43,781 nucleotides of DNA from Raillietiella orientalis (taxonomy: Eukaryota): contig JAYWIR010000119.1 in assembly GCA_036172245.1 (NCBI GenBank), forward strand, positions 62,001 to 105,781, written 5' to 3'. The translations under genes were made by a program, and so were the position numbers. This document shows, one piece after another, positions 6,555-43,781 of this stretch. Positions within the stretch are counted from its first letter, which is position 1. Each line of letters opens with the position of its first letter. The notes under the pieces were generated by a model that saw only the letters and a list, made by a program, of their open reading frames with translations, ran no database searches and was not told the DNA's origin.

Positions 6555-7780
6555 TCATGTGGCTGCCCAGGCCGTTGGAATTTGTCATGGATGTTGATTG
6601 GCAGGCTGATCTTCAGTGACAGTACAGCTCCAATGAGCAAGGGCCTCTGTTTGGTCTTCTGGTCCAGGCGCTTTATATAATTGGAACCCAAATACAATAC
6701 TGCTCTTATTGTTGCTGCAGTTTCTCTTCTCGCTGAAACTGTCTGGAATTTTCTTGTCCAGTTGAGATCTTAGTCTCTGATTCGGATTGGTATGGTCTTG
6801 ATTGCTAGGGGTGCTGTTCCAGTGATGTCCAGACTTTTGAAACAACCTTTTGTTATCTTCAAAGTTGTTTTTGGCCCTATAATATCTGACAACAACTTCA
6901 GATAACGGAGGTTGAATCGAGTTCTAGGAACGTATTCTGGAAGCGTTGTGATGGTTATTCTTCGGCTACCTAGTCTCTGCTTAATCTCTTGACGTTGAGG
7001 AGTTGTTATATTCATTCTACCTAGGAGATTCTTTGTCCACCTAGAACATCTGGCCTTCCTATTCTATAATCGATATCTGGCACTTCAGCTTCGGATGTTA
7101 GGGTCATCACACCGTTCGCAGTGATTCCCAGGCGTGGAACCTCTTTGAAAAGGTTATGATTTTCCTGGTTCGCAGCATTTGCTTAATACCATCCCAACCC
7201 ATGCACCGTTGTGGTCGGTAAGTTTGGAATGTTCAACCCCGATCTTTTGCCCATTTCGTCAGCATAATCGCCGACTGATGTTAACTAAGATGGGCTGAGG
7301 TAGTTGAACTTCCCATCTGTTGTAGCGTTACGTATTTATTTTTCCTCCAAGGTCAGTGCCCGTTTTGCTTGCTTGGCCTTTATGTCCAGCAGACGTAGCC
7401 GGACCACTGCTGAGGCATAGTATCATATGTTGGCTTTCTCAATCTTCTGATCTAGGAAAAGATTCTCGAGTGGATTTTTTTCATATATTTGGTCAGCGAT
7501 GTTATATAGCTGATCGAATGATGTGCTGAATGTCTCGCGCACACTGATTTCGGACACCTTCATATCCGAGCCGAAAGTAACCTCATCAATAGACGATTTA
7601 CGTTGTGGCATAAGATCCATGTTCCGCTCCATATTCGTCTCCGTAATGGCGAATGGCGTGGCTATATGAGTTTTGTTTGCCAGCCTCTTCACACATCCTG
7701 GATTTGAAGCTTGTGGAGCTTGCTGCTTGGCAGCAGGGGGAACTGCTCATTTCACTTCACTTTCGGACTACTTTCGCCTT
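6555..7780 (-). pseudogene. Endogenous viral element: partiti-like dsRNA virus capsid protein, decayed
   Basis: Minus-strand translation through stops and frameshifts gives EISVRETFSTSFDQL...YYASAVVRLRLLDIKAKQAKRALTLEEK*IRNAT...EMGKRSGLNIPNLPTT...HNLFKEVPRLGI...QRQEIKQRLGSRRITITTLPEYVPRTRFNLRYLKLLSDIIG...FGFQLYKAPGP...WSC...QIPTAW. From memory these blocks are collinear with capsids of arthropod partiti-like viruses; needs BLASTx confirmation. Ends approximate. Confidence 0.75.
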
Positions 7781-10700
7781 CCTTGGAAGGAAATCTTTAG
7801 GAGAATAGTTGGTTTTATTTATTTCTTAGCAGACCGCTACCTGTTAGGCCAACAACTAACTCGGTAGTTGTATGAAGCCTAATGATGCTTCTTGCAGCCA
7901 GTGGCAGTAGCCTTCTTGCAGTAGGCAGAGCGATTGCTTTTCTTTGCAGTGGTTAGATTCACAGACAGTGCTTTTTATTGCTAACAATCTTTTGGGGGTG
8001 GCCTGCAAACGGAAGTGTATTAAGATTGTGAGTCATGATGAGACATGTAGTTATTGCATAATCATATGAAATTCAAGGCCAATATCATGATGGGGATGTT
8101 GTTTCCCCGTTTCAGCCGACAAAATTGCATACTTTTTGCTTTTTATCTGCAGTTGAAACTTAAATAAAAAGAAGGATATCCAAGTACGATGTTGATGTTC
8201 AACATTGATGATGCATTCAGTGCATGCTTTGTGTTTCACAGAGCACCATGTATGATTGAAGCTATGAAGCTGCAGCATTTCTTTGTATGCTTCATTAGAC
8301 AATCGTGGGGTGTTTTGTATGTTCCATTGACTTCATGTACTCTAGGTCAAATTTTCATAAATAAATGACAGGAAGCAGGAAAATGTTATATTTTGTTTGA
8401 ATGTTTGAATAAATTGTGTCTCTTTGCCCGTCAGTTCGATTTCTTCGCGCTGCTTGGCAGGTTTGTGTACCCATATTGTGTCATTTTTGCCATTTGGTTG
8501 AAAATCTCAGCTTTAATGACAAGTACCATGTCTGAAACTGTTTTATCACGTTCAGAGATAGCAGAATATAAGTGCTTTTCGGAATTCGATATTTGAACTT
8601 TCCACTGACGGTTTTGGTTTTCTGAAGCAGCATATTTCATCTCAGCAATGTTCATTAAACTCGAGCATATCATGAACAGTTTGTTACAGTATTAGGGATG
8701 AAGTAGGCTCTATGTAGAAAGAATTATGAAGAAGGTGGATTATTTTTGATGGTTTTTCACCCGGGTGAGCCAGGGCTTCTATGATTAAAATTTTTTCACA
8801 ATAAAAAAAAAAATTCCACAATAAAGTCTTTTTCGTTCATGATGTTTGTCGTTTAGTTCACTACATTAGTTTTTGTCGTTCTTCGCCACTTGTCCTTACC
8901 AACCCTCAGGCCGGTAACGTCCTCCATACTGGCGCAGGGGCGGGAAAAACAAAAATAAAACAAAAAAAAAGAAAACGCCTGGGAAAGGCAGTGTTCTTTG
9001 TGCAGGGGAGGGAAGGGAGGGGATCACGGTACGCCGTGAAGAGGCCTCTGCATCCTGTTTCGGATGCGAACAAGTGCCGGCAAATGTTTTCCAAGTCGAC
9101 GCCAACGGCAGGCCTTCTCCAAAGAGATGGCTGCCCAGTGGATGGCATTCCGACTCGTACTTCCTCTCCTTGACGCGGTCCACTTGTCCAGGACTCCGCA
9201 TATGCAACAGAGCACTGCTACACACCCGAAATCTGGCAAGGCGTCCCGCGTCAGGAGGCGTCTAAATAAGTTTTTCGGGTCGCCCACCGGAATGTTCAGG
9301 ATCGACGAGATTCGGTCCCACATCTCCCGGAGGACAACACACTCTAGAATCAATTGGGGGAAGGTCTCCCTTTCCCCGCACTCTGTACAATTGGCATCCA
9401 CATTCCCCGATGTCCAGTGAGACAGGCGTGCTCTGCTTAAGAGTCCCCAATGGAGCAGAAGGAACGCCGTCTCCTGCCATTGCAGAGGAAGGGTGCCGTT
9501 ATCCCAACCCGCTGTGGGCCACTTCACCTCCTCCGGAAGTATGTCGAGCAGCGCGCCCCAGCGTACTAAGTCCATTCGGCGGGGCAGCGGGTGTACTAGC
9601 GTCCGCTAGTTCCCGAGACGTCCACGCCTTCAATTGTTTTTTCCTGCCTCCGATAAGGCAGGACACTTCCTACGATGCCTCCTGATGGCTGTCCCTAACT
9701 TCTCTGAGGGAGGGCAGCACGGAGTCAAGGGGGGTGAAGGAAGCCCACAGAAGCTTCCCTGGGTTGCACACGATCTCCTGCAGTGGCTGGCCAGCGTGCC
9801 TGCCTCTACGTAGGCAAAGTCCTCATCACTGGAGCCGTTGATTTTGGCCCAAGCGGAAACGGACTCCTGGAGCCAGGTAGTCCAGTCCGCAGGGATGCAG
9901 GAGATCCACGGATTGTCTCTCAACAGGGCAACCAATTCCCGCAGCTGAAATCAACAGTGGTACAGGCTGCGTTAGTTGGCTCCTAGGATTGAGGTTAATC
10001 CTTGGCAGCCGGTTGCCCTGTGTGCGAGGAGTCTTGTAGGTGCAAACCAGGGTGCAGTCCAATACTTTGCCACCAGGGCAAGTTTTCTAAATTGGAGCTG
10101 GCGCTCCATGCGCTCCATCGTCAGGACACCAAGTCCACGGTCTCTGCGTGGCTCGCACAAGTCTTTAAGACGGACACGGGGCCTCCGGTTGCCCCAGAGG
10201 GCTTTCCGTATGAGGTCCCTTGTCCGTGTCCTAATCTGTTGAGGGGTGGGACACACAAAAAGTAGGGGGCGAAGGAGGGGGGCCGCAAAAGCGTTCCACA
10301 CCGCGGCCCGTTCCTGCAAGTAAAACTTGCCGTCTCGGAACGGGCCGATCGCCAACTCCACCTTTTGGAGACGGTGGGACCAGGCTTCTGCAGCGCAGAA
10401 GTCCCCCAACGGAACGCCCAGGTACTTGAAGTACCCGCCCGTAGGGATCCCCAAGCGGATCCAGTCCGACCGTCCTGCCCGCGACGAGTCAGAAGAAATG
10501 ATCGACGACTTCGCCCTGTTTACCTCGAAGCCCGTCCCACAATGCAGCAACTCAAAGAAATCTTCGAGCGCCGATGCCGGGTTGGACCCGTGAAGCAGAA
10601 GCAGAAGGTCGTCGGCATTGGCCGACACGGCAGGCGTGCCGGGACATGAGCTCGGCAGGGTTGCCAAAGTCTCCCTGTATGCTCTCAGCACCAACTCAAA

Positions 10701-11346
10701 GTAGATGCTGAAGAGCAGGGGGCTGAGGCTGTCACCCTGCCGTATGCCTCGACGAACCGGCACGCCGTACATGTGCCGGCCGCTGAAGTTAATATTAATG
10801 ATCGCGAAGCGCCAGCAGGAGCGCAGGTAGGCCAGGAAGACAGACGGTTAATCCCATGCGTTCCAGGAGCTCCAGGAGGAGCTCCTGGCCGACGCAATCG
10901 AAAGCTTTACGCAAATCGACTGCGACCGCAAGGGCTCCGGGCGCCGCATCTTCTCCCCGGCTTCCTTCTCCCCGGCTTCCTTTCCCCCGGTCAGTGAAGA
11001 GTCCAGGACTCTCCCGAGCTAGCTGCCCCTCGCGTTGTTGCAACTGCCAAAAGGTGCGGGCGAGGAACAGGTTGGCCTCCATGGTTCGTCCGGGAACAGC
11101 GTAAGTCTGTTCCGGACTGACCACGGATCCCGCTACCCGTCCCAGCCGCTGAGCCCAGAGTTTGGCGAGCAACTTCGCGTCCGCATTCACTACAGTGATG
11201 GGACGCCAGTTGCCAACGTTCCGCAAGTCTTTTCCCATGGGGAGGAGACGTACTCTAGCTGACCAGAACGAGTTCGGGACATCCCCACGTTCACGGATCA
11301 GCATACATAATTTGAGCACCAGGGGGACCAGCTCTGCCTCGAAGTG

Positions 11347-12403
11347 AATGAGGATGAGGAATCTGTCGAGTCGCGGGCTTGCGCTGTACTAGGACTTGAA
11401 GCGCAAGCCCAAGGGAGTATGGTTCCATTTTCATTCATCATCCAATCTGTAAGACGACTAGCATCACACTTGGAGATATCACGTACAACCCATATGTCTG
11501 ACGACATCTTTTCGTAGTTCGGCTCCCAATTACTAGAGACAATGATGTGAGGGTCCAAAATGTTTGATGGATCCTTGATATTTGCTGTCGAAGATAATTC
11601 CGTTTTTCATGGTTTCGATGAAACCGTATTGCACGAGTTCTTGATTGTCTCGTGTAAGATCGACTACGATTACCCACTCGCCGTTGTAGATGTGGGCGGC
11701 GTCCGTTTTCTTGCAGGAGTGCTTGTAGATCGCTCCCTTTTTTAGGTAAAGGAATTTGGCCATCGTGATTTTGCCTATTCCTCCAATTGGGTCGAAGAAC
11801 CAGTGTATTTTGCGGTTGTCTGGGTTGTGGCGGATAAGTTTGAGTATGTCCATCTGCCAGCTTCTGAGTTGGAGTTTAGTTAGTGGATTAGGGTGTGCTC
11901 TGCTGTGTGTTAGCCTTAAGCATTCTTTAACAAAGTTTATGTTTTTGGAATAAAACTTTGTGTGATTTTTTAAGATGAAGTGTTCGTCTGCACCTTCTTC
12001 GATAAGCTGTAGGATCTAGTAGAGATATGACTAATTATTTTGTTTGAACGATTTATGGACTTACCAGGTCTTGGTAGTTTGTTGGTTCGTTTGCTTCGTG
12101 TAATTTGCCGTATGTCCAGGCGTTTTTGTCCTCCTTAGTGCAGTACCTTAAGTTGCTCTGAGCTGATCCTCTTGCTTTCTCCAAGTGTGTCTTGTGGAAA
12201 GGTTTTCTTTTTAGTCCTGGCATGGTGCGTGGCTCTTTTAATTGGAAGTATCCCTAAAGATGTGGCGTCCCTGTTTTGGCAGTTTTTTGGCCAATGCAGG
12301 CGAAGCCGCAGTTGGCACGGCATCAGTTCTTAATGTCTTTCAAGTCTTCTTCGGTGAAGTTGCAGAGTGTAAAGCACCAATTGAAAAACAGTGCGTACGG
12401 CAT
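11347..12403 (-). pseudogene. rep: Rolling-circle replication initiator Rep (HUH endonuclease + SF3 helicase), spliced, disrupted
   Basis: ATG at 12403; motif I WCFTLCN, motif II TPHL*G, motif III YCTKE; Walker A DPIGGIGKIT, Walker B IVVDLTR, KNGIIFDSKY, motif C PHIIVSSN, SSDIW. Premature stops at 12323-12325 and 12254-12256, a frameshift near 11555, and no stop before the LINE junction. Confidence 0.95.
12016..12064 (-). other. 49-nt GT-AG intron in viral rep
   Basis: GTAAGT...CTACTAG; removal joins a 339-nt exon 1 in frame to the helicase exon (NYQDL|ILQLIEEG). Confidence 0.8.
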
Positions 12404-12452
12404 CTTGAAATTCACTGTAGGTAAGACTTGGCTTTGGTTCTCTGTGTGTTGG

Positions 12453-12460
12453 TATTTATA
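12453..12460 (-). promoter_or_regulatory. TATA box of rep
   Basis: TATAAATA on the minus strand about 50 nt upstream of the rep ATG, next to the origin hairpin. Confidence 0.6.
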
Positions 12461-12479
12461 GTGCGTAACTGCGCAGAAG

Positions 12480-12514
12480 ATGCAATCTGGTAAATAGTAT
12501 TACCCAGATTGCAT
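12480..12514 (+). other. CRESS virus origin of replication stem-loop
   Basis: ATGCAATCTGG-TAAA-TAGTATTAC-CCAGATTGCAT: perfect 11-bp stem; the loop contains the canonical nonanucleotide TAGTATTAC (12495-12503). Confidence 0.95.
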
Positions 12515-12760
12515 TTCGCTGACAACTCAAAACCTTGGGAAATTCCGATATGTTGTAAGTGATATTTTTAGTGGCTGGTTTTTGTGCGCAATCATGGAAG
12601 ACTTTGGAATGAGGAACATGCTGTTGCTGTCCACGTGGGAAGTGCGTGGCGTAACCCGACCTCGTGGAAGACTGATGAAGTCGGGTGGGCGTGCCCACCA
12701 GCCAGACTAAAAAAGGGCGGGGGATTGACTTAGGTCGTCAGTACGCTGTCAAGCAGCGGA

Positions 12761-12904
12761 ATGGCGGCACCTCGCGCTGTTCGTTCTCGGAAGCGAAACC
12801 GTGTAGTATCTTGGTCTGTAGGAAAGCGACATAGGTTGTCGCGTCGCAATGTTGGTTATAGTACGTTTAAACGTCGGCGCCGCTGGAATAATCGTCGCCG
12901 TAAG
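12761..12904 (+). pseudogene. 5' fragment of CRESS virus capsid gene (Arg-rich N-terminal arm)
   Basis: MAAPRAVRSRKRNRVVSWSVGKRHRLSRRNVGYSTFKRRRRWNNRRRK, divergent from rep across the origin, cut by the LINE junction. Confidence 0.75.
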
Positions 12905-13295
12905 TTGGTAAAATTCAGCTGGCGGGCCGTGTTCCCCTGGTGCTTTGTTTTTTTTTAAATATTTGATGGCGGAGACAATCTCCGCCATGGTGAAATCTTT
13001 GTTTATGGTATAAGACTCTGCCTCCCTTAACGCGGGAGCACCTTTGGCAGCAAACGCTGCGCAAAGGAGCGCTCTGGTGTTCTCGCGTCTAGGGAGGAGT
13101 AGAAATCCCGCAAAATGCGGCAAACCTGCGCTGGAGTAGAGCGCTCCTGGCCTTGCTCGTCCAGAAAGCAGGAAGACCCGGATTGCCAGGCCTGCTTCTC
13201 AGGTCCAGCCTTGAACTCCGCCAGGCGACGGACGTCGGGCTTGTTGGAGAAACGACGGGCCTGAAGATAGCCCCTGTCGTTTCTCACGCCTTCGC

Positions 13296-13783
13296 CCGAT
13301 TCAATCGACCTCATCGTCACCAATGTGTACGCTCCTAGCGTTAAACAGGGATACCAGCAGCGCAACGCGTTACTGGAAACCTTGAAGCGCGAATGGCTGG
13401 TGGACACGGACGTGCGAAAGGCGCATCTGATAGCAGGGGATTTCAACGTCCGTCTGCTCTCAGATGAGCACGGAGCACAGGGAAACGCGATCAACGAGTT
13501 GTGCGCCGCCCTGCGCGCGCGCAGATTGTTGACAGAAATACAGGGGATGGTCAGAAGCGTGGACCACGTCTTTCTCGACGAAGACCTGTGCACACGGGTC
13601 GGAAAACAAGAAACACTTGAATCGACGCTGTCGGACCATTCCCGGTTATTATTCGAGATGCGCCCGCGCGAGCACGGACCGCCATCCAAGGCGTGGCATA
13701 TGCCAGGGGACTGGACGCGCTTGTGAGGAGCGAAAGAACACCTTGGCGAATTCCTGCGAGGCGTCACCGTCCAGAGTCTCTCT
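13296..13783 (+). mobile_element. LINE APE endonuclease fragment, inverted relative to copy X
   Basis: DSIDLIVTNVYAP, AGDFNVRL, SVDHVFL, LSDHSRL. Confidence 0.9.
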
Positions 13784-15485
13784 TTAAACCCGGTTCTCCG
13801 GGATGTTTATTTTTGCAAAGAAAGCTCTCTAAATTTTGACTGGACCAGTAGTCCAGCCACGCCCTAGAAACTTTCAGCCTCCCGGGCTACCGATGCGCAG
13901 ACCGGCGCGGTTGACTTCGGCAGCAGAGGGGAGGGGGAATGAAACAAAAGAAAACAAAAAAAAAAAAAAAATCGGGGAGGGAGCGGGAAGGGATCACTGT
14001 TTGCTTGGAGAGCCTGTCATCCTATGGAGAATGCGGGCAAGCTGTTGCTGCATGGTGGATGCCAGATGGATCCATCGCGTCGCCATCCTCAGAAAGCGGG
14101 CTGCGTACACGGTGGCATCCCTGTCGCTGGTTCCTCCCATCGCTTTGCTCCATGCATCGACGATCCCGCGTAGGCAGCACAGTGCTGCAAGCGAGGCCGC
14201 TATAGGCAGGGCGTCACGACCGAAGAGGGGACGCAAAGCGTCTCTTGGGTTTCCTACGGGGATACCCAGGGCCGCGGCAAAGCGTTCCCACAAGGACGGA
14301 GGGCAACAATCCACTATCAGGTGGGCGAGGTATTCCCTCTCCCCGCAACTGACACAATTGGTGTTGACATCCCCCCCGCGTCCAGTGGTGTCGGCGGGTG
14401 TTGCAAGGAAGGCCCCAATGCAACACCAGCAGTTCCAGCCGCTTCAGCGTGAGGAGGCCAAGACCGCTGTCCCGACGCGGAGCACACAAATACTCGTGAC
14501 GGACTCAGGGCCTCACTCTGCCCAAATGGCCGATCCTCAGGAGGTCCTTCGTCCTTTTTTTGACCTCCGCTGGGGGGGAGGGCAAATAAAAAAAATTGGT
14601 GAAGGAGGAGGGTTGCAAACGCGTTCCACTCCGCGGCCCGTTCCTGCAGGAACAACCTGCCGTCCTGGAACGGGCCGATCGCCGCCTGAGCCTTCTGACG
14701 GCAGCCCGAACACGCTTCCGCAGGGGAAAAATCCCCCAACGGCACCCCAAGGTACTTGAAGTACCTTACCGTGGGGATCCCCAAACGGACCCAGTCCTGC
14801 TGCCCTGCCCACGCCGCTCCGACCGGCATTACGGACGACTTCGCCCTGTTCACCGTAAGTCTGGTTCCCTGATGCAGCTGGTCGAAGAACTCCTCGACCG
14901 CCGAAGCCGGGGTGGACATAGGGAGCAGCAGCAGCAGATCGTCCGCGTATGCCGAAACCGCAGGCGTACCGGGACAATCGCACGGCAGGTGCGCCAGAGT
15001 CTCCCTATACGCTCTCAGCACCTATTCGAAATAGTCGCTGAAGAGCAAGGGGCTGAGGCTGTCTCCCTGCCGTATGCCGCGTAGCACCGGTACGCCGTAC
15101 ACGGTGGATCCACTAAAAAAGACATTAATAAGCGCGTCGCGCCAGCTGGAGCGCAGGTAGGCCAGCAAAGAGGCCGGGAAGCTTAAGCGTTCCAGAAGCT
15201 CCAAAAGGAGGTTCTGGTCGACGCAATTGAATGCTTTATGCAAATCGACTGCGACCGCGAGGGCTCCTCTCCCCTCCCTACCATCCCGTCCCCCACCGAG
15301 GGACGCATCGGAATTCCGGTTGCTTATCATGCTCCTTCCTTGTTGGAGCACTAACCATGTGGAAGCGTGGAACAGGTTCGACTCCATACTTCGCCCGGAA
15401 ACAGCATATGTCTGTTCCGAGCTGATGAAGATGTTGGCAACCCGTCCCAGCCGCTCTGCCCACAGCTTGGCTAGCAGCTTGGCGT
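13783..15485 (-). mobile_element. LINE copy A1 (RT to 3' end, about 650-nt internal deletion near 14432)
   Basis: AKLLAKLWAERL, DLHKAFN, RQGDSLSPLLF, AYADD, FKYLGVP, zinc finger, 3' UTR with AATAAA and terminal hairpin. Close relative of 18359-22137. Confidence 0.92.
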
Positions 15486-15573
15486 GCGGACGTGTTTTTT
15501 CCGCGCTCCTCTGCGCCTGTTGTAAAGCCTTTCGTTGCGTTAGTGTTAGTGTGTGGTGCATCTGCAGTGTCCA

Positions 15574-17567
15574 ATGGCAGAAATGCCTGAGGACACCGCG
15601 ATGGAAGTCGGCGGGGGAGAGGATTGTTCCTCTCCCCAACCCATTGAGGTCAGGGCAACTGTCCCCACGGAGGAGAGGGCAACCTTTCCCTTGAAAAAGG
15701 GGGCAACCGCCCCACCGGAAACGAGTGCTACCGCCACCTTGAAAAAGGGGGCGACCTACCTCGTGGAAAAGGCCGCAACCGCGCCCTTGAAAAAGAGGAC
15801 AACCGCCGCCTTGGAAAAGGGCGCAACCGCGTCTTTGGATCCGTCTGCTCCATCCACAAGGACCTGGAGCTCCGTGGCTGCAGCGCCATCTCCCGCAGCC
15901 TTAGCAGAACAGCGCGCCTACCTTGAACAAGGATACAAGCCATCCTTGATTTACAAGGTAGGAAACCTGTTTGTGGGAAACACCGCTCGTAACTTTGAAA
16001 GAAAGTTACAGCGGTTGGATGTAAAAAAGAAAGACCTGGATGGTCTCGCCGTGATGAGTGGAAGGCAGCGGGTGGAGCTGACTTGCAAAAATGCAAGTCT
16101 GGCTCAACGCCTGCTGAACACTCCCATCACTCTGGAAGGCCGAAAGGTCTTCCCTGTAACGGAGGACCGCTCCTTTGTTGCACACCTAACCGGTGTAACT
16201 CTGCGCATGACAAAAGCAGGCGTGCAGGAGGAGTTGCAAAAAATGGTACGGTGCACGCGCCCAGGACCAAGCCCAAAGTATTCCAAACATACGGAAGACT
16301 GTTCAGTGGCATGGCTGCAGCGCGTGTGACCGTCCACGAAAACGGTGGGCTGCCCCACAAACTCGACGTCGGCAACGAGGTCGTCGACGTCTGGTACGTG
16401 GGCAAGCCCAAGTACTGTGGCCACTGTGATGCAACAGGGCACCTGAAAAAGCGTTGCCCTCACATCCAGTGTTTCCACTGCGGGGAGAAGGGCCACCTCC
16501 GAAAAGTGTGCCCAAAGCGGGAACCTCCAACTCCCTCTGCCTTGAAAAAACGTAAGGGGAAATGCTTCGAGAAAACAAGCAAGCCCACAGAAATGAAGGA
16601 AAGGCCAAGCAAAAAGCCAGAGTCCGAATGTTCCCAGCAAACGGTGGTCAAGAAAACTCCCGACGACGCTGGTGACAACGAGCACTGGAGAACAGCGAAG
16701 CCGAAAACTAAAAAAATCCGTAAAACCGAAGAACCGATAGCGGAACCCGCGACAACTTCTTTAAATAGAAGGCAACGCCGCGCTTTGCTCCGCGAATGTT
16801 CGGTCGCTTTGTAGCGAGTGGAGATCCCCGAGACCTCCACCGGGGGAGATATCCCCCGCCTCGTTGACGACGAAGCCGCGATCGCGAAAGGCGAACCTTC
16901 TGTGCAAAAAGAGGGGGAGCAGAGCGACCCGCTCGCCGCAATCGAGGACGCCGCCTTATAACAGGCGGCGGAAGAGCTCGCGGCCGTACTCGCGGAGCGT
17001 GAGAACGGGGCGCGAAAGGCCTAGCGAAGGCCGGCCGCAAGCAAGGCACCTCCGACAGGTGACCACGAAGCGGATGCCGGAAGTGCGTCCTCCTCCGCGG
17101 AGGCGCCTTTGAAGAAGACTGGACGGAAGTCCAAAAATCCAAAGAGGCGCATTCCGACAAAGGAGGGGGACGCACCGGCAACCGAGGGGGAAGCCGACAG
17201 CGTGGGAACGGAGGGAGCGATTTTCCCACCCTCCGCTACCGAGCAGCTGGCGACCCCCATGGAGGAGGGGGATAAGGTGAGTGATTGCCGCCCCCTCCCA
17301 ACGGTGGAACCTGTTCAGGAGATAGCCATGGAGGAAAGGGAGCAGACAGCTGACAACCGCTCCCCCCTGCCGTCCAGCGCAGTCGACGAATCGGCCCCCA
17401 TGGAAGAGGGGGAGCAGGTGCGTCAAACCCACCCCCTTCAACCGTCGCGGTCCGCCGAGGAATCAGCCCCCATGGAGGAGGAAGAACCGGTGCCCGGTGA
17501 TCCCATTCCTCCATCCGTCCCGCCCGATCAGGTGGCGGTAGCCCCATTGCCACTTTCCCAGGAATAA
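15574..17567 (+). pseudogene. LINE ORF1 (nucleic-acid-binding, two CCHC zinc knuckles), disrupted
   Basis: MAEMPEDTAMEV...; CGHCDATGHLKKRC and CFHCGEKGHLRKVC; low-complexity C-terminus with PMEEGE repeats; frameshift near 16250 and stops at 16812 and beyond. Confidence 0.85.
15652..15843 (+). repeat. 24-bp (8-aa) degenerate tandem repeat in ORF1, 8 units
   Basis: RATVPTEE RATFPLKK GATAPPET SATATLKK GATYLVEK AATAPLKK RTTAALEK GATASLDP; only 3 units at 31396-31467. Confidence 0.8.
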
Positions 17568-27802: not shown

Positions 27803-27881
27803 GTTTGGTTCCCAACCGACGACTGAACAAGAATTCGTTAGAGAGCAGGGGACTTCAACGTCCACCTGCTCTCTAACGAAT
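27778..27881. repeat. Two abutting perfect inverted repeats (25-bp and 17-bp arms) at a LINE-LINE junction
   Basis: 27778-27802/27810-27834 and 27833-27849/27865-27881 are exact reverse complements. Confidence 0.92.
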
Positions 27882-28685: not shown

Positions 28686-28880
28686 CCTCGCTTTCGGAAG
28701 ACATCTCTTCCACTTCGACAGGGGAGACGATCTTATTCGGCTTTGTGGAATTATGTACAGTTTTTTTGCGGGGTGCCCTGGAAACGCAGGGTGCTCTGTC
28801 AGCCTACACCACGAGGTCGGATAAGGGGGACTCCTGAGGGGATGGCGGACGCCTTACGGCCTTCATACTAGCTTTGGAGG
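28686..28880 (-). mobile_element. Short ORF1 C-terminal fragment related to A3
   Basis: Aligns by eye with 38960-39150 (shared GGAGACGATCTT...GGCTTTGTGGA and ACTCCTGAGGGGA...CGGACGCCT). Confidence 0.65.
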
Positions 28881-34200: not shown

Positions 34201-36988
34201 CTTGCTGGACGACCAGGGCCGGTAGCTTTCCGCTCCGGCTAGAATACGGCACCTATTGCGGTGTTATCATTCCTCCCTTCACGCCAGGGCGCCTCCGGAA
34301 CAAAATGCCTCTCGGCGCTTGCTTCCGCATGGTGCATCGTCAATAGGGGAAGAGGAGAAGCAAAGCCTCGACGAGCCTTCTACCACCGGCGATATTCTCG
34401 CCGGTATCAAAAGGCTCAAGTAGCGGAAAGCACCAGGAGGGGACGGCTTGCATGCGGAGTTTTTTTAATGCTCCGCGGCAGAGTTGACTCCTCTGGTGCT
34501 TCAGTTGACAAGGCTTATGCGAGACGAAGGCGATGTTCCCGCCTCGTTTCGGTCAGCCAGAGTGAGGCTCCTTCCCAAGAGAGGAGACCTCAGAGAACTC
34601 AGCAACTGGCGTCCGATCACCATTGTGAATACGGACGCCAAGCTGATCGCCGGACTGTGAGCGTCGCGTCTAGGACAGGTGGCAGAATGCGTAATTAGCC
34701 CGGAACAGGCTTACGGTGTTCCCGGGCGAAGTATGGATGCCAACCTGTTCTTCGCGATCACATGATTTTGCTGGCAGAGTAGTAAACAAGATCGTGAGCG
34801 TGTGAGGGGCTACCCTGATTTGGGGGCGCCGGCCGGGCAGTGAAGAAACACCGAGCCGGAGAATGGGGCCCAAGTGATCGCAGTCGATCTGCATAAAGCG
34901 TTCGACGGCGAGGACCAGGAGCTTTTGCTGGAGCCCCTGGGTCGCATGGGCTTACCACCCTCCCTACTAACCTACCTGCGCTCCTGCTGGCGCAACGCTA
35001 TAATCAACGTCTCTTTCAGTTATCAACAAGTGTACGGCGTGCCGGTGCGACGGGGCATCACGCAGGGCGATAGCCGGCGTCTTCTGCTCTTCAGCACCTA
35101 CTTTGAGTTGGTGCTGAGAGCGTACAGGGTTAATTTGGCCCCCTTGCCGAGCTCCTGCCCCGGTACGCCCGCCGTAGCGGCTTAAGCCGATGATCTTCTG
35201 CTTCTTTTGCCCATGTCCGCCCCGGTAGCCGCAGTCGAGGATTTCTTCGATCTGCTAAGCCACGGGACTGGACTACGGGTAAATAAGGCGAAGTAATCGG
35301 TGATAGCGGTTGGTGCGACGTGGGTGGGACCGCCTGACTGGATTCGTTTGAGGATCCTTACGGCGAGATGCTTGAAGTAACTTGGTGTGCCGTTGGGGGA
35401 CTATTCCCCTTCGGAAGCGTGGTCGGCTCGTCTCCGGAGAGTATAGTTGGCGATCGGCACGTTCTTGGAAGACAGGCTACTCCTTTGGGAACGGAATGCG
35501 CTATGGAAAGCGTTCGCGGCATTTATCCTCCGCCTCCTGCTGTTTGTTTGCCTCGTCCCGCCGCAGTTGAAGAAACGGACGAAGGACCTCCTAAGAATCG
35601 CCATTTGGGGAAGAGGGAGACCTCGAATCCCGTTGATGGACTTGTGTGCTCAGCGTAGGGATGGCGGTCTCGGCCTCTTGACGCAGGAGCGAATGGAGAC
35701 GTCGCTGCGATGGCGTACCCTGGCCATCGCAGCGAAGTTATGGAGCACCCCTTGGTGCATTCCGGCCCGCCTCCTAGACAGCCGTGTGTCCCGCTGCGAT
35801 TGACTCGCGTCTTTTCTTCTTCGCCCAGGCCAGAAGATAAGAAGTTGCGGCCTTCTTCACAAACGCATGGAAACATTGGTCAAGGAGAACGTCTGGATTG
35901 CATGCAGCCACGCCAACTCCTCCGCATGGCTGGAGGAATCTGTTGGAACGTGTGCGAGGTTAAATGCCCAAGGAGAAAAAAACTACAAGTGCCTGCGATT
36001 CTACAACCGTGCCCGCGGCAGCCTTCGGACCTTCTTGCAATGTTCCGCCCTGTGCAGGTGGGCCGAGACCACGCACCTAGCTACGGCGATGCCCTTCGTG
36101 AGGAGGGCGCCCTTCAGCAGCCGCACGCCTAGGTGGCAAGTCTACTGCCGAATTGCAGGCAGAGCGAAGAAGTTAAGCGGCTGGACCACGGCGCAACTGG
36201 CCGATGCCACTACCCGAAGTGTCCTCCCGCGTGGTTTAAAGAGATGGGGCGAGCTGCTCGGCATCCCGATGGATGACCTGATATGGCCCCCGGATTTTAT
36301 TGGATCGAGGATCCTCCCCCTGAAGTGGCAGGAGTCGGCGCTCCTGCTGTTGCCTTGGGGTCTACCCTGCAACGCACGCCGCCACCACTGGAGCAGGGGT
36401 CGAGAAGATCCTGCCTGCATCAGGTGTGGGGAGCGGGAAACCCTCATCCACCTCTTGGTAGATTGCGCTGCCCTCCGACCCCTGTGGGAGCGTCTTGGTA
36501 CCTCCCTACGGCTGCAGGAGGGCAGCCAGCCCAGAGACGTTTTTCGGCTTCTTTGCGTGCAGGATGCCCTGCGACCAGCCGCCGCTCTGGTAGCTCTCTG
36601 CTGCATCCGAGGGATCCAGAGAAGCTGAAGCGATTACAGAAGACCGAGTTTACGAGAGGGGTGCCGTCCAACTGGCAGTCCGCTACCTACAACTTGCAAC
36701 CAGATGGCCTCACCTGGGAATCATTCGGACGTACCTCGAGGGCATCCTGGAAAGGATGGACCGTCCTCCCAGTGGACCATGATCCCTTCCCCGCCCTCCA
36801 ACTTCTTTTTGCTTTTCTCTTTTATTTTTCTTTTTGTTTTTCCCCACTCTTTTCCGCTGCCGAGGAGAGTCGCGCCGGTCTGCGTACCGGTGGCCCGGCA
36901 TTTCCTGTTGAGTTGGCCGTAGTGGAGCCAAGTACCACAATTTGTAAAGAGAGTTTACAATAAACGCCCCGACGTGACCGGGTGGCAA
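31229..36988 (+). mobile_element. LINE copy B2, full length (about 5.76 kb), multiply disrupted
   Basis: 5' UTR; ORF1 31318-33194 (CGHCDARGHLKKKC); ORF2 about 33194-36780 (AGDFN, DLHKAFD, A*ADD, CIRCGERETLIHLLVDC); 3' UTR AATAAA 36959-36964 and terminal CCGGGTGGCAA. Confidence 0.94.
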
Positions 36989-39900
36989 CGTACAGGGAGA
37001 AGTAAAATTTGCGGATAATCCCGCGCTTCTGAGCAGGAGCCGAGTGCTCCCGGCCCTGGTCGTCCAGCAACCTTCGCGACCCGGATTGCCAGGCTTGACT
37101 CCCGGCTCCAGCTCGATACGCTGCTTACATGCGCATGTCTGAAGTTTTCGCGTAACGTCAAGCATGATGATAGCACCTTTCGTTCCGCGGCCCCTCCAGA
37201 AATCCTGGAGGTAGGCGATGCAGAGGAAACCGTTCGCAGAGCTCCTGAACCGACCGCTTGAAGCGGTCCCAGTCCTGAAGCGTCCGCAACCTGAAGTTCC
37301 GTGTGAACGCGCGGAGATGTTTTGACGCATCCGCACGCTTCAGCCAGTCCCCTGGGAGACGCCACGCTGACGAGGGGGGGCCGTTATCGCGCGAATGCAC
37401 TTCGAACACGATTCGGCCATGGTCAGACAGCTCGGACGGTAACTTGTCGCGCCTGCCCACGCAACAGCATAGGTGCTGGTCAAGGTAAACGAGATCGATG
37501 CTGCGTTCCATGTCTGTATCTCCGGCCAGCAAGTCGCACGTCTGCATTTGAGCGCACAACTCGTTGACGCGGTCGTTCAGTGTGTCCGGCGCACTAGAAA
37601 GCAGGCGCAGGTTGAAGTTTGGCACCCGGATATGCCGGGGCATTTATTATTCTAATTTTCTACAAAAATTAGATAATAAAGTCTTTCAAAAGTTAATTGT
37701 GGGAAACACTTGGTTTTCCCACCTTGGTTGACGTGTCTGTTGCCGGTGCATAGACCGGTTAGGTCCATTCCCGAGGCGCATGGGAAGGGAAAACTAGAAC
37801 AAAAACAAACAAAAAGAGAGATAACGGGGAGGGAAACAGTTGTATGGGGAGAGTGGGGGGGCAGGGAAGGGATCACTGAGCGCCTGGGTCGGTCCTCCGC
37901 ATCCTGTTCAGGATGCAGTCAAGTTCTGTTTTAACTCTGAAAGGTAGACGCCACCTTGTCGCCGTCTCTAAAGAGATCGTCGTCCAGTGGATGGCGTCCC
38001 TGCATCTTGGGCCTCTTCTTCTGGCGTGCCACCTTTGCACAATGCCGCGCACGCAGCAGAGGACTGCTAGAGACGCAGCGGGGCGCAGGTTGTCACGCAG
38101 AAAGAGGCGACGGTAAATTTCCTTAGGGTCGCCTACTGGAAGATGGAGGATTGGGGCGATTCGACTCCAGAGTCCATCCAGGGCGACACACTCGAGGGTG
38201 AGATGCGGGAAGGTTTCTCTTTCTCAGCACTCGACACAGCAGGCATCCACATTTCCCAGTGTCCAGTGAGACAGGCGTGCTCTGCTTAACAGTCCCCAGT
38301 GCAGAAATAGCAACGCCGTCTCCTGCCACTTCGATCAACCTGCTTCAATCAACCAATCGCGTCCGAGGTCAAGGTACAATTCTCTTCTTGCCTTCGCCCT
38401 CAACGCGTCCTTACCGCTAGGAGCGTACAACTTGGTGAGGACCAGGTCGATTGAGTCGGACCAGCTGAGAGTCAGCTGACCGACACGAACGGCGTCATCA
38501 AACCGTACGTCCTTTATTGCGGCCTCGATGGCTGGCCGGAGCAGGAAGGCGACACCGCTTGATTTCGCGGGGCCGCAACGCCACAACAGCCGCCCACCCG
38601 AGATCCGTTCGATCTCCAGGGCTTGATCTGCGGAGATCACGTGAATCTCCCGCAGCAGCACCAAATCGAAGGATGCCAGGGTGGCGGCCGCGTCACGCCT
38701 CTTGCCGTCGTCGCTTAGCCCGTTCACGTTCCAACAGGCGATCAGAAGACGACGGCGAGAGGCGATTCCCGGCATTATGGCTGGGAAAGTGGCGCTGAAG
38801 AGTCTGCCGCAGGGCAGGTGTTGGGGATGTCCATGAGGACGGAGTTCTCTTCAGACACCTGGGGCACCTGTTCGGTCTCTACCTTCTCCATCCCCTCCGT
38901 AACGGAACGTGGGATTCTCTCGGGCGACGGGTACCGGGAGTTTCCCAAGCTCATCGCACCCTCGCTGGCGGAAGCCTTCTCTTCCCTTTCGTCGAGGGAG
39001 ACGATCTTTTTGGGCTTTGTGGACTTTCGTACAGCCTGTTTGCTTGGTGCGCTGGAGATGAATGCTGTGCTTCCGGCCTCCACTTCGGGGTCGGAAGTGG
39101 GATACTCCTGAGGGGAGGCCGGACGCCTGACAACCTTCTTGCCAGCCTGGGGGTGGCCGGCTGCAACGAGGCAGCAACCTCCTCGCGGCGCGCTCAATGG
39201 CGACGTCATCGAGCGTGGACTCGATGACGGATGCCGCCGCCTCGCTCCCCTCCTTGTTGACTTTCTCAACGGAGGGTTGAGCAGGGGCAGCAGCGAGTTC
39301 TTCAGCGACGCATTCGTAGATGGCGAGAATCCGCTTTACGACGACGCAGCAGCTTTTGATTTTTTCGCGGCGTGGCTCGGTTTCGCTCTCTTTTGCCACG
39401 CTTTTTCCCATCTTAAGGGATTTTTTCTTGGAGTCGACCTTCTGTCACCCTGGCTTTTGACCCTCGCCCTCGATTTTTTCGGCGTTTTTCGTCGGAGTCT
39501 GAGGGCTGGCATTCGCCTTGCTGGCGAAGGTGACCTCCTTAGCAGCAGCAAGAGCTGCCTGCTTCTTTCTGTTTTTAAACGCGCGCTTTCTCGCGTTATT
39601 TGCCGACCTGACGCGGACTGTGTTTTGGGGGCACACAGAACGGGTGTGCCCCGCTTGTTTACATTGCTGGCATCACACGCTTGGAGACCTCATTTTAAGG
39701 TAACCAAAGCTGCTGCAGCAGCCGAAAAACTTGGGTTTCCCCACGTACCACACGTCAACGGATTTACCGTTGACGTTGAATTTGTGGGGAAACACATCCC
39801 TCGCGAACCGTCACTCGCGCTGCACCCAGGCCGCCAGGCACCCCGTCGTTATCAACAAACGGAGTAGGTTTTCCCATAGCGTGACGACCGTTGCGAATTT

Positions 39901-40190
39901 TTCTAATTGGTTCCGGACGGTTTTTTTCGTCATCCGCAACGTGATACCGGTCAGGTGAATGATCACCGACCGGTCTTCAGTAATTGGGAGAAGCCTCCGG
40001 CTGCCCATAATTACGGGGGTTCGAAGAAGTCTTTGCGCAAGAGTTGCCTCGTTGCAGATAACTTTCAAAAATTGACCCCCGCTTCTGACGGATATAGCCA
40101 GAAGCTCCTCTTTTTGTACGCCGAGAACGCGCATCGCCTGCGAGAAGGCGCGCGCGTTCTCGGCAGAATATAAACCGCCTAAAAAGTTAA
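36989..40190 (-). mobile_element. LINE copy A3 (most of ORF1, APE, linker to SLY), interrupted by copy Y
   Basis: ORF1 with DLWYVGKPKF and knuckles ending LSQP*; ORF2 MPGIASRRRLLIACWNVNG...RDWLIEAG (38338), resuming FNLRLLSSAPDTLNDRVNELC at 37618. Confidence 0.88.
37619..38333 (-). mobile_element. 5'-truncated LINE copy Y (C-terminal domain + 3' UTR) nested in A3
   Basis: KWQETALLFLHWGLLSRARLSHWTLGNVDACCVEC; ends AATAAATGCCCCGGCATATCCGGGTGCCAA. Confidence 0.85.
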
Positions 40191-40920
40191 AAGTCCCGGA
40201 GAAAGAAGTCCTCGGGCTTTCGGTTAGAAGTGGCGGGCAGCTTGTTGAGCTGAACTGCAAGTCTGCAGGGATGACTTTCGACCGTGAACGGTCGAAGAAT
40301 CTTCCCGTTCACGGCGGACAATTCCATCGTTGTCCACCTCACCGGTATTACCATGAGAATGGCTAAGACCGCCGTTCGCGAGAGTTTGGAAAAGTTCGGG
40401 ACGGTCCACGCGTTGTGGGCAAAACTTAATGTCCTGGGTTACACCAGGGCATTCAGTGGTTACGCCGCTGTCTGCGTGACCGTCCGAGCCGAGGGTGGGC
40501 TACCCCACAGACTGCAGTTCGGGGAGGAGGAGATCGACCTGTGGTATGTGGGGAAACCCGTTTACTGCGGCTTTTGCCAGGTGTCGGTGCATTTAAAAAA
40601 GAAATGCCCCAACATCGTGTGCTTGGGCTGTGGGGAGAAGAGGCACATCAGGCGGATGCGCCCCTACCGATAAAGGTCCGTTCCGTCAGGCGCGATGAAG
40701 GATGAGACGCCGAAAGAAAAGGACCGAAGCCAACAACTGGCAGAATCCCGCCCTGCCGACCAACCTGCTGTTTAGCCATCCTCCAGCGAACAACCAGCTG
40801 GAGAAAGCGCCGAGAACAAGAAAGGTTAACAGAAGGTGGTCAAGAAGAAAAAGGCCATCGTCAAGGAGGTAAAACGCATAAACAAGGCGGCTCCGAAGAA
40901 GCAGAAGCTGGAAGTCTGCG
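40186..40920 (+). mobile_element. LINE ORF1 fragment G
   Basis: VPEKEVLGLSVRSGGQLVELNCK...DLWYVGKPVYCGFCQVSVHLKKKCPNIVCLGCGEKRH. Confidence 0.85.
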
Positions 40921-43151
40921 TTTTCACCCGGATATGCCGAGCATTTATTCAAAAGAATAAAATTACAAGTGATTCTCGCGTTTGAACCCAAAGGTCCACC
41001 ACTACAAAACAGCTTGGTATTTACCGGCGCTATGCCGGAGAGGTCCATCCGATGCGCGAGTGTTGGGAAAGAAAAAACAAAAAACAAACAAATAGTGGAA
41101 GTATGGGAGGGAACAAATGTTTCGGGAATGGGAGAGAACGGGAAGGGATCACTGCTGCTGCTGGGGCCGCATCATCCCTCTCAGGATGCTGGCAAGCTCT
41201 TGTTTGTTCTGAACATCCAGGTGGGGCCATCGCGACGCCCTCCTCAGGAATTCGGAGGCGCACTGGATGGCTTCCTGATCGCTAGGTCCTCCCGTCGCCG
41301 TGCTCCAGGCGGCGACGATCCCACGAAGGCAGCACAAGGCTGCTATCGAGGACGCTGGACGCAGGGCGTCGGCAACGAAGAAGGCTTTTAGTGCGTCCCT
41401 GGGGTTGCTGCAAGGGATACCGATGGCCGCGGCAAAGCGGAACCAAAGGGGCCGAAAGGCAACACAATCCACTAGGAGGTGGGGGAGCGACTCTTGTTCC
41501 CCGCACCTTACACAATTGGGATCCACCGCTCCCCGGGTCCAGTGGTGTCGACGGGCGTTCCAGGGGAGTCCCCAGTGCTGCAACAGGAATGCCGACTCTT
41601 GCCATTTTAGGGGGAGGATGGAAGTGTTCATAAGAATCGGGGGCCACTTCAGATGTTCAATCGGAACATCCAGCAGCGCTCCCCAGCGCAGAAGTCCATT
41701 AGGAGGCGTACTCGGGGTCGCAGCATCAGTTAGCTGGCCCGTCTACCACTCTCTCTGCTTCTTCTCCTTCCCGGAGATTTTCATTGTAACCTCCCACTCA
41801 GCAGAAGCATCGCTGTCCTGATGTTCCACTAGGGAGTCCAGCGCAGCAGCGAGGGGGGTTCTTCCTGACCACGCTCTCTTCTTAGGATCCTTCTTAGGTA
41901 TCACCCAAACAGGAACCTTCGTTCCTAATGGAAGGGTTGCATGCCGAACTGTCCCCACGTACGAACGGTTTCCTGCAACCAGGGACTACCGTTCGCGGGG
42001 AGACAGGTGATCCATCCTTGATTTTTCCTTGCCAGCGCAGCCACCCTCCGTAGCCGAAGCCCACATCGGTTGATGCGGCTTCGATGGAGTGCAAGAAACG
42101 CCGTAAGTCCCGTTTTGCCGGTGGCGTGCTGAAGGAGGAGACGTGCAGGGACGCACCAACAGGTGCACCACAACTCCGGCACAAGCGCCAAAATCCAGAA
42201 CTGGAGCTGCAGCTCCAGTCGCTCCAATGTCAGGAGGCCGAGACCACCGTCCCGACGCGGACCGCACAAGTCCTTCAAGCGGACCCGGGCCCTCCCGTTG
42301 CCCCAAAGGGCGATACGGAGGAGGTCCTTCGTCCGCTTTTTGATCCTCTCTGTGGGGGGGCAAACAAAAAGCAGGGAACGGAGGAGAGAAGCCGCGAACA
42401 TGTTCCAAACCGCGGCCCGTTCATGCAGGAAAAACCTGCCGCTTCGGAACGGGCCGATAGCCGTATCTACTTTTTGAAGGCAGCCGAGCCGCGCTTCCGC
42501 AGGGAAGTAGTCCCCCAACGGCACACCAAGGTACTCGAAGTACTTCACCGTGGGGATCCCCAAACGGACCCAGTCCTGCTGCCCTGCCCACGCCGCATCA
42601 ACTGGCATCACGGACGACTTCGCCCTGTTCACCGTAAGCCCGGTTCCTCGATTCAGCAGGTCGAAGAACTTCTCGACCGCCGAAGCCGGGGTGGACATAG
42701 GGAGCACTAGCAGGAGGTCGTCCGCATATGCTGAAATCGCAGGCGTTCCAACGCATTCATGTGAAAGGTGCGCCAGAGTTTCCCTGTACGCTTTCAGTAC
42801 CAACTCAAAGTAGGTACTGAACAGCAAGGGGCTCAGGCTGTCTCCTTGCCGGATCCCAAGTCGCTCCGGCACGCAGTGAACAGTATGCCCGCTGAAAGTA
42901 ACATTGATTAGCGCATCGCGCCAGCTAGAGCGCAGATAGGCCAATAATGAGGCCGGGAAGCCCAAGCGTTCCAAAAGCTCCAGCAGGAGATTCTGGTCGA
43001 CGCTGTCGAATGCTTTACGCAAGTCGACAGCGACCGCAAGTGCTCCCTCCCTCATCCGACCATCCGTCGCATGACTGACGGACTCACCGGAATTCCCGGT
43101 GCGCATCAAGCCCCTTTCGTGTTGGAGCTCTAGCTAGGTGGAAGCGTGGAA
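40921..43151 (-). mobile_element. LINE copy A' (RT to 3' end)
   Basis: 394-aa ORF with DLRKAFD, RQGDSLSPLLF, AYADD, YLGVP; zinc finger CVRCGEQESLPHLLVDC; ends AATAAATGCTCGGCATATCCGGGTGAAAA. Confidence 0.94.
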
Positions 43152-43781
43152 CACGCCCGTCGACACCACTGGACCTGGGGAGTGGTGGATCCCAATTGTG
43201 TAAGGTGCGGGGAACGGGAGTCCCTCCCCCACCTCCTAGTGGATTGTGTTGCCCTTCGGCCCCTTTGGTTCCGCTTTGCCGCGGCCATCGGTATCCCTTG
43301 CGGCAACCCCAGGGTCGCACTAAAAGCCTTCTTCGTTGCCGACGCCCTGCGGCCAGCGTCCTCGATAGCAGCCTTGTGCAGCCTTCGTGGGATCGTCGCC
43401 GCCTGGAGCACGGCGACGGGAGGACCTAGCGATCAGGAAGCCAACCAGTGCGCCTCCGAATTCCTGAGGAGGGCGTCGCGATGGCCCCACCTGGATGTTG
43501 ACAACAAACAAGAGCTTGCCAGCATCCTGAGAGGGATGATGCGGCCCCAGCAGCAACAGTGATCCCTTCCCGTTCCCTCCCACCCTTTGCTTTTTTTTTT
43601 TGTTTAGTTTTTTTTTGTTTTTCCCCTTTCCCCTGCTGCCTTAGTGGACCGTACCGGTCTAGAAACCGGTGAATTGGCAGCCGCCGTGGTTCTTAGCTTC
43701 TGGCTGGAGCATTGCCACAGCCATTAATAATTTGTTTACAAAGTTTATTTTTTTAATAAACGACCCGGAGAAATCCGGGTG
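43147..43781 (+). mobile_element. 5'-truncated LINE copy A'' (C-terminal domain + 3' UTR)
   Basis: Near-identical inverted copy of 41137-41561; ends AATAAACGACCCGGAGAAATCCGGGTG at the window edge. Confidence 0.92.

Follow-up and report, generated by a model that had tools for sequence, protein, structure and literature searches.

The closest described systems to the locus treated here are the twin-primed, 5′-inverted copies of the long interspersed nuclear element (LINE) L1, the fragmented transposable elements (TEs) of heterochromatin, the PIWI-interacting RNA (piRNA) clusters that bear endogenous viral elements (EVEs), and the endogenous circovirus- or cyclovirus-like Rep genes of animals. 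The locus is a block of L1-like LINE copies with two virus relics, contained in a 43,781-bp stretch of the Raillietiella orientalis genome (assembly GCA_036172245.1, contig JAYWIR010000119.1, positions 62,001 to 105,781 of the forward strand), hereafter called the window. In twin priming, as set out in the cited part of PMC2912911, one DNA end primes at the 3′ end of the element RNA and the other primes internally, and the two complementary DNAs (cDNAs) become linked to each other; among recent L1 insertions of human and chimpanzee, about 31% are 5′-inverted in this way, and in cell culture 5′-truncated L1 insertions often carry target deletions (PMC2912911). In heterochromatin, McGurk and Barbash (2018; PMC5932611, in the section drawn on here) described tail-to-internal junctions arising from nested or repeated insertion, together with inversion junctions at internal sites of fragmented TEs. 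The clustering of EVEs in piRNA clusters is also documented (10.1101/396382; see also PMC5497376 and PMC6797480).

The locus belongs to a known kind of region, of which it is a well-documented case, and is not a new system. With a probability of roughly 55%, it is a passively built LINE nest, that is to say a transposon graveyard, which stands at the edge of AT-rich host DNA and has trapped viral DNA. According to this explanation, an L1-like family would repeatedly insert, by target priming, into older copies of itself; the two DNA ends of a break would each prime reverse transcription, and the two cDNAs would then be joined 5′ to 5′. The head-to-head joins would be products of twin priming, often with two different LINE RNAs, and target deletions at insertion together with later duplication or conversion would have erased the parts expected to resume. 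The two virus relics would be incidental captures in insertion-tolerant DNA, and piRNA precursors may be transcribed from the locus, as from other such regions. By-products of LINE integration that are already known, together with duplication, explain most of the pattern, and nothing read from the sequence requires a dedicated immune function.

According to self-BLAST and tblastn with the window's own ORF1 and ORF2, LINE-derived DNA covers 31,366 of the 35,026 bases of the block (89.6%), and the uncovered rest consists of the 1,560-bp Rep insert, the tails in the 3′ untranslated region (UTR) and pieces between the two open reading frames (ORFs). An earlier account made without database searches, referred to below as the sequence-only reading, had spoken of 35 kb of LINE-only DNA without host spacer; this stands for 8756–43781 and falls for the first 2.2 kb (6555–8755), where the capsid relic (6558–7737) and about 1 kb of AT-rich DNA are found instead. 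The same account had assigned all copies to one LINE clade with several subfamilies, which agrees with the domains found, with the match to LINE-1 ORF2p, and with a DNA identity of 64–90% among copies. In six-frame Pfam scans, the ORFs of the block yielded Exo_endo_phos, RVT_1 and zf-CCHC: Exo_endo_phos reached 4.9e-12 at 20578–22185 on the minus strand, zf-CCHC scored 1.2e-5 and 3.2e-4 in ORF1, and L1 endonuclease chains matched at 2.6e-4 to 1e-3. The best solved relative of the ORF2 of copy F (letters as in Table 1) is human LINE-1 ORF2p at 6.7e-42, with R2 proteins at 5e-13 or weaker; this placement, made against solved structures only, covers the L1/Tx1 group as one and does not separate an L1 from a Tx1 subclade. 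At the C-terminus of ORF2, a Cys-His knuckle (CxxCG-x6-H-x4-C) is present in six copies and degenerate in A and S (eight altogether), and in the endonuclease region at least three lineages can be told apart ({C′, C, D}, {F, M} and {G, N}). A word-indexed search with ORF2 gave a single match, at 63% identity. The common 3′ terminus consists of a T-rich stretch, AATAAA, a 5–7-bp hairpin ending in CCGGGT and 2–5 A; a poly(A) tail as in mammalian L1 was not found at the 3′ ends of the copies. Every LINE copy is dead or broken.

The arrangement of the copies is what carries the explanation. Among the 14 LINE elements there are 11 strand switches in 13 adjacencies, which is the number given by the sequence-only reading, and the strand totals are balanced (16,942 bases plus and 18,097 bases minus). 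The alternation is modestly above chance, the binomial P being 0.011 for 11/13, 0.033 when duplicated junctions are counted once (9/11) and 0.105 when all 17 fragments are taken (11/16); an excess of this kind is what pairwise head-to-head insertion would give. The 3′ terminus of copy A adjoins host DNA, and wherever a 3′ terminus faces LINE DNA, as six do, it adjoins an internal LINE site (junctions C′/B, C/F, n2/E, K/H, G/N and D/M). Contact between a 3′ terminus and an internal site of another copy marks target-primed insertion into older LINE DNA, so that these six junctions point to insertion of the family into itself. All six switches from minus to plus are 5′–5′ joins, with a spacer of 0 or at most 14 nt. 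Plain nesting would need head ends that touch the interrupted target sequence, and none of the 12 head ends does so; the earlier statement that simple nesting does not explain the pattern is thereby borne out. Its companion, that most interrupted elements do not resume, also holds, for of the eight interruptions only two are followed by a continuation in the window, in A beyond the Rep insert and in M beyond S. An origin of the inversions in homologous recombination, with inverted copies as partners, was rejected by reasoning, because it would keep the coordinates colinear and the junctions are not colinear.

The joins share with twin-primed, 5′-inverted L1 the strand switch, the joining of the segments at their 5′ sides, the outward 3′ terminus and an L1-like family. 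Two of them fit classical twin priming in their coordinates: A/C′ is of textbook form, with ORF2 residue 273 set against residues 117–285, and in B/C residue 494 is set against the 5′ end to residue 285. The likeness ends with at least three pairs that have two 3′ termini and overlapping coordinates, namely E/D, F/G and H/I, whose overlaps are 69.1%, 64.7% and 96.5% alike and whose partners each have their own 3′ terminus. An overlap at only 65–69% identity, as in E/D and F/G, indicates two RNA templates. The simplest mechanism that would serve for all the joins is one in which both ends of a single break prime on two RNAs and the cDNAs are then linked. Further differences from twin-primed L1 are that no flanking target duplications were found here and that a short hairpin with 2–5 A replaces poly(A). 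In comparison with the heterochromatic TEs of PMC5932611, both kinds of junction are alike; in the part of that work cited here, inverted tandems are mostly rare and not analysed in depth, whereas in the present block all six of the minus-to-plus switches are head-to-head. If this rule held genome-wide, the family would exemplify two-template twin priming as a normal finish of LINE integration, a step that is poorly understood.

The age of the junctions can be judged from those that occur more than once. The stretch 13296–15488 matches 17874–20711 at 86% overall, and 14433–18359 matches 30157–33997 at 81% overall; in both copies the C/F-type and B/C-type breakpoints are kept within 4 nt, with 70–96% identity around them. 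Two composite junctions thus occur in two diverged versions each, which shows that they are ancient and genuine and not assembly chimeras. In sequence, B groups with F (89%) and C with D (87%), and B and D are 69.6% alike. DNA evidence from outside the assembly consists of short contigs of one low-coverage DNA run (X1), which leaves many bins uncovered, 6500–8500 and 11169–12502 among them. In one of these contigs, position 21277 of an F-like minus-strand copy passes through an 11-nt filler to 15486, which is exactly a C-type 5′ terminus; a second contig, from a paralogue of G, tracks the ORF1 of G and diverges left of 22134. Because the contigs break or re-join exactly at 5′ ends, the 5′ termini of C/D and of G are real, and the contig that joins 21277 to 15486 implies at least one further head-to-head join in that run.

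Several points weigh against the LINE-nest explanation. Classical twin priming uses one RNA and is therefore impossible for the three pairs E/D, F/G and H/I, and to our knowledge, and in a literature search, two-template head-to-head LINE dimers have not been described as a regular product. No target-site duplication was recognised around the head-to-head pairs, whose flanks are other, mutually unmatched LINE pieces, and the single low-coverage run confirms only a minority of the junctions from outside the assembly. At the shared junctions the identity changes in steps (C′ and C about 76% alike, B and F about 89%; B and E about 70%, C and D about 87%), so that simple duplication is insufficient, and either conversion of B by F or insertions that reached one site independently must be invoked. 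Finally, two virus relics lie within 6 kb, where even the greatest arthropod EVE density on record, 5.68 per 10⁷ bp according to the cited part of 10.1101/396382, would by chance give fewer than 0.01 neighbours. By this measure the region is out of the ordinary, and its being a piRNA cluster would be one way to account for that. Independent insertion at one site would follow if the LINE endonuclease preferred sites in its own copies, the repeated junctions being separate hits, and this self-targeting is rather doubtful. It would account for B and F (89% alike) standing at the identical point of C′ and C (about 76% alike), for the 3′ termini of S and G hitting one and the same endonuclease-coding motif in two different targets, no more than about 10 nt apart and equally oriented, and for the fact that six of the seven 3′ termini with a flank in the window face LINE DNA. 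Yet there is no common target motif across the six different 3′ flanks, D, M and G carry the residue-285 site without interruption, the recurrent breakpoint at residue 494 is a 5′ junction that site-specific nicking does not fix, and in a LINE-only block most insertions land in LINEs by chance. It is highly improbable that the switches are artefacts of assembly or amplification, that is, chimeras that the assembler or fold-back reads would have produced, even though the window ends exactly at a LINE terminus, which may be a contig end at a repeat, the near-identical inverted repeat H/I lies beside that end, and the sole outside data are short contigs of one DNA run. Fold-back chimeras give identical arms, and for this reason they were rejected as the source of the head-to-head joins, the arms here being 64–72% alike; the alignment of H with I has 15 substitutions and no gap, and their 3′ tails are unrelated. 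Moreover, four junctions each occur as two diverged copies (70–96% alike around the breakpoints), which no assembler error makes, and X1 contigs bridge 12904/5 with 0 differences and cover 18362–18539 across C/F with 8 differences.

A role in small-RNA silencing has to be weighed in the same way. That the block is a working dual-strand cluster for piRNAs or endogenous small interfering RNAs (endo-siRNAs), whose read-through transcripts silence the LINE clade and keep a memory of two virus infections, is possible, although it is not the outcome to be expected. The make-up of a piRNA cluster, TE fragments often accompanied by EVEs, is present here (89.6% LINE and two EVEs), this feature not being specific to piRNA clusters; in favour of a working cluster, the block is made only of TE fragments and two unrelated EVEs, the EVEs being within 6 kb of each other and on the strand of copy A, and the strands are balanced (16.9 versus 18.1 kb). 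The uni-strand bias of TE fragments is absent, and if the block is a cluster it would be of the dual-strand type; whichever way it is transcribed, the LINE sequence in the RNA would be about half sense and half antisense. The sequence-only reading had proposed that such transcripts could fold into long double-stranded RNA (dsRNA). This is realistic for 41129–41558 against 43153–43582 alone, a 430-bp inverted pair at 96.5% identity with perfect runs of 23–63 nt, which would give hairpin RNA, while all other inverted pairs are too diverged (64–72%) for Dicer-grade dsRNA. There are 19 exact inverted runs of at least 21 nt: nine in H/I (23–63 nt), one in the G hairpin and nine of 21–24 nt. Against a working cluster it must also be said that the same make-up is expected of any insertion-tolerant heterochromatin, and that both relics are broken and only 30–43% identical in protein sequence to their nearest known relatives, so that guide RNAs from them would match few present-day viruses. 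In the cited part of 10.1101/396382, 81.4% of in-cluster EVEs gave primary piRNAs, as compared with 35.7% of other EVEs, and by analogy with that arthropod work, piRNA output from this locus is plausible if the host is an arthropod. A bolder combination appears unlikely: that the family routinely integrates by double-ended priming, often with two RNAs and preferentially into its own copies, that nests are chains of head-to-head dimers, and that the balanced block with its 430-bp hairpin and two relics serves as a dual-strand source of small RNA.

With regard to known EVE-bearing piRNA clusters in Aedes and other arthropods, the likeness consists of dense TE fragments in both orientations with non-retroviral relics in or beside them, known here from sequence alone. 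Mosquito EVEs lie mostly among long terminal repeat (LTR) retrotransposons, whereas the block described here is purely of one LINE group, and in place of the commonly reported rhabdo- or flavi-like kinds its relics comprise a partitivirus-like capsid and a circovirus-type Rep. The locus is a compact test case of whether EVE-bearing LINE nests, and not LTR-rich clusters, yield antiviral or anti-transposon piRNAs.

Table 1. Features of the window (positions counted from its first base; residues are those of the element's protein).
Feature	Position	Strand	Description
Partitivirus-like capsid relic	6558–7737	−	About residues 19–420 of a protein of about 455–465 aa
AT-rich stretch	7738–8755		38% GC; between capsid relic and first LINE terminus
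LINE block	8756–43781	both	35,026 bp to the window end; 14 LINE elements, plus S nested in M
Copy A	8756–13290	−	3′ terminus (hairpin 8759–8773) up to ORF2 residue ~273; split by Rep insert
Rep insert	11344–12904	−	Circular Rep-encoding ssDNA virus; ~1.56 kb, inside copy A
Rep exon 2	12006–11536	−	Open, 157 codons
Intron-like piece	12064–12007	−	58 nt, GT..AG ends; removal would join exon 1 in frame to exon 2
Rep exon 1	ATG 12403 to 12065	−	Two in-frame stops
Origin-like hairpin	12480–12514	+ (nonanucleotide)	TAGTATTAC at 12495–12503, in the loop of an 11-bp stem
5′–5′ join A/C′	~13290		
Piece C′	13296–13782	+	ORF2 residues ~117–285; right end cut by 3′ terminus of B
Copy B	13783–15488	−	3′ terminus (hairpin 13788–13802) to residue 494; internal deletion of ~residues 838–1049
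5′–5′ join B/C	15488		
Copy C	15489–18360	+	True 5′ terminus, ORF1 type b (zf-CCHC), ORF2 to residue ~285, where 3′ terminus of F cuts
Copy F	18361–22134	−	3′ terminus to ORF2 residue ~17; without ORF1; best-kept copy in window
5′–5′ join F/G	22135		
Copy G	22135–27845	+	Divergent lineage; 5′ terminus, ORF1 type a, frameshifted ORF2, 3′ hairpin ~27778–27834
Piece N	27846–28689	+	ORF2 residues ~160–443; closest relative G, 66%
Scrap n2	28682–28880	−	C-terminal region of ORF1; 28682–28872 matches 38956–39146 at 74.9%
Copy E	28881–31228	−	3′ terminus to residue 494; breakpoint equals that of B within 4 nt
5′–5′ join E/D	31228		
Copy D	31229–36988	+	Full length, 5′ to 3′ terminus (hairpin 36968–36983); many broken frames
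Copy M	36989–40290	−	ORF2 residue 375 back through ORF1 to 5′ part; 3′ side cut off by D terminus; 84–91% to F
Copy S	37618–38328	−	Short, 5′-truncated (residue 1077 to 3′ terminus); nested in M
5′–5′ join M/K	~40290		
Piece K	40281–40920	+	ORF1 residue ~82 into basic C-terminal part, where 3′ terminus of H cuts
Copy H	40921–43153	−	3′ terminus (hairpin 40926–40941) to residue 523
5′–5′ join H/I	43153		
Piece I	43154–43781	+	Residue 1077 to 3′ terminus (hairpin 43764–43780), which is the window end

The passage from host DNA to the block is visible in base composition: the GC content is 34–42% across the first 8 kb of the window and 51–60% from 10 kb onward, the shift falling at about 8.7 kb. 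The CpG observed/expected ratio is 0.97 in the LINE block (8756–43781) and 0.61 in the AT-rich host flank (1–6500), so that old LINE copies are present without methylation-type CpG decay; with CpG undepleted in the block, silencing, if there is any, would not be by germline CpG methylation. The AT-rich stretch at 7738–8755 had no self-match, LINE match or Pfam match, Rfam gave no match within the window, and its tandem repeats showed nothing structural. A nuclear mitochondrial insertion in the host flank was considered and rejected, the sole match being a weak one to COX3 (E 0.0022, below the cut-off) and long frames under code 5 being absent.

Both viral relics that the sequence-only reading had named, one of a single-stranded DNA (ssDNA) virus and one of a dsRNA virus, are recognisable by homology. 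The ssDNA relic is the Rep insert of 1,560 bp and 45% GC, which splits copy A between ORF2 residues 439 and 437; by tblastn, residues 439–1184 of copy A lie at 9084–11343 and residues 273–437 at 12905–13422. It matches Viral_Rep (PF02407) at 7.9e-15, with 55.3 bits against a cut-off of 26, and solved circovirus-type Reps match at 7.9e-13 to 1.6e-8, among them 7kii (7.9e-13, with residue-level alignment) and 2hw0 (1.2e-9). A Walker-A-like GGIGK stands in the reading frame of exon 2; as for a superfamily-3 helicase, the second half of Rep had no Pfam, PDB or word-search match and an IMG/VR scan gave no loci. The nearest Atlas clusters of exon 2 are Cressdnaviricota at 0.97, some with RNA_helicase, which serves as a lead only. 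The nonanucleotide NANTATTAC of the origin of circular Rep-encoding ssDNA viruses is represented here by TAGTATTAC in a stem-loop on the strand opposite to Rep. This hairpin folds at −11.2 kcal/mol (z −6.4), and none of 200 shuffles folded as well; the nonanucleotide motif alone has 3 matches in the window against 1.33 expected.

Compared with the endogenous circovirus- or cyclovirus-like Reps of animal genomes, the insert is alike in having Rep endonuclease motifs followed by a P-loop-like part, and stops. It differs in having retained both a 58-nt intron-like piece and an origin hairpin that bears the canonical nonanucleotide, in sitting inside a LINE, and in looking like about 1.56 kb of viral genomic DNA and not like a retro-copied mRNA. 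Because the hairpin and the intron-like piece are kept, the ssDNA virus would have entered as DNA and not as a retro-copied mRNA. An X1 contig bridges the right border at 12904/12905 with 0 differences, and the borders of the insert in copy A show no clear target duplication. In the part of the insert beyond the hairpin (12540–12904, about 390 nt), an arginine-rich minus-strand reading is seen near 12900–12850, which might be the remnant of a capsid gene. The DNA-level capture of a circular ssDNA virus and the relic of an RNA-virus capsid stand side by side in this locus.

Among the individual LINE copies, F has an ORF2 of 1,203 codons at 18574–22185 on the minus strand with one internal stop, and G ends in its own long perfect hairpin (arms 27778–27802 and 27810–27834, about 25 bp, −50.5 kcal/mol, z −11). 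In B, about 640 nt are missing at 14436–14431 relative to positions 19017–19655 of its close relative F, and C carries near the start of ORF1 (15677–15831) a 24/48-nt tandem repeat of 3–6 copies, being about 65 nt longer than D here. Piece N was tried as the continuation of C beyond the F and G pair, and this was rejected, N and C being 60–63% alike. The coordinates allow E and M to be two halves of one copy, which D would have split and which would have lost about 120 codons; the different likeness of the two to F (69% for E, 84–91% for M) weighs on this idea. S is cleanly nested in M, about 30 nt of M having been lost at the insertion site. The 3′ termini of S in M (37618–37645) and of G beside N (27838–27850), which lie within about 10 nt of each other in one conserved endonuclease-coding motif of two different targets and point the same way as those targets, may mark an insertion hot spot; by rough estimate, the chance of such a coincidence among six junctions is a few percent. 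H and I are 96.5% identical over 430 bp in inverted orientation (41129–41558 against 43582–43153), with 15 substitutions and no gaps. The stretch they share is C-terminal coding sequence and their 3′ UTR tails cannot be aligned, the tail of I being like those of B and F and the tail of H like that of S, which points to a recombinant lineage or to a gene-conversion tract ending at the stop codon.

The dsRNA virus relic lies outside the LINE block in AT-rich DNA, about 1 kb from the terminus of copy A; its reading frame shifts twice, near 7045 and near 6695, and its first segment holds at least four in-frame stops. It was aligned by tblastn with 9 relatives. With phmmer, 152 matches at E ≤ 1e-3 were obtained against 1.84 billion representatives, 61 of them at ≤ 1e-10 and the best at 1.1e-37. 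The relic itself had no Pfam match in three frames, a word-indexed search at near lengths was empty, none of the 12 relatives scanned had a relevant Pfam family, and the capsid profile gave chance matches only against PDB sequences. The assignment was made through structure: the AlphaFold model of relative P0004 (pLDDT 89.5) matches by Foldseek the Verdadero, Netjeret and Galbut viruses and many coat proteins of fungal and plant partitiviruses, with E down to 4e-20 and a TM score of 0.67. Among solved structures, partitivirus and picobirnavirus capsids are best, with the capsid of Atkinsonella hypoxylon virus at the top (E 4.4e-3). No poly(A), LINE tail or duplication was seen around the relic that would tell its route of entry.

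In eighteen cluster look-ups, the capsid relatives are found mostly on contigs of 1.45–1.67 kb, in keeping with capsid genes carried by monocistronic dsRNA segments of about 1.5 kb, and one of them represents a segment of an RNA virus that has a name but no classification; the named relatives come from spiders and insects or lie within insect genomes, which would suggest an arthropod-like host for the relic. Their identification as quenyaviruses was rejected, the paper making no mention of the named virus and the fold being that of partitiviruses. Three insect proteins among the relatives carry repeated or fused partitivirus-capsid-like segments, namely P0002 of a scale insect (1,976 aa, 16 matched stretches), P0076 of a bee (named “serine-rich adhesin”, 14 stretches) and P0008 of a firefly (fused to PQ-loop repeats); from their sequences, these look like EVE arrays that have been annotated as host genes.

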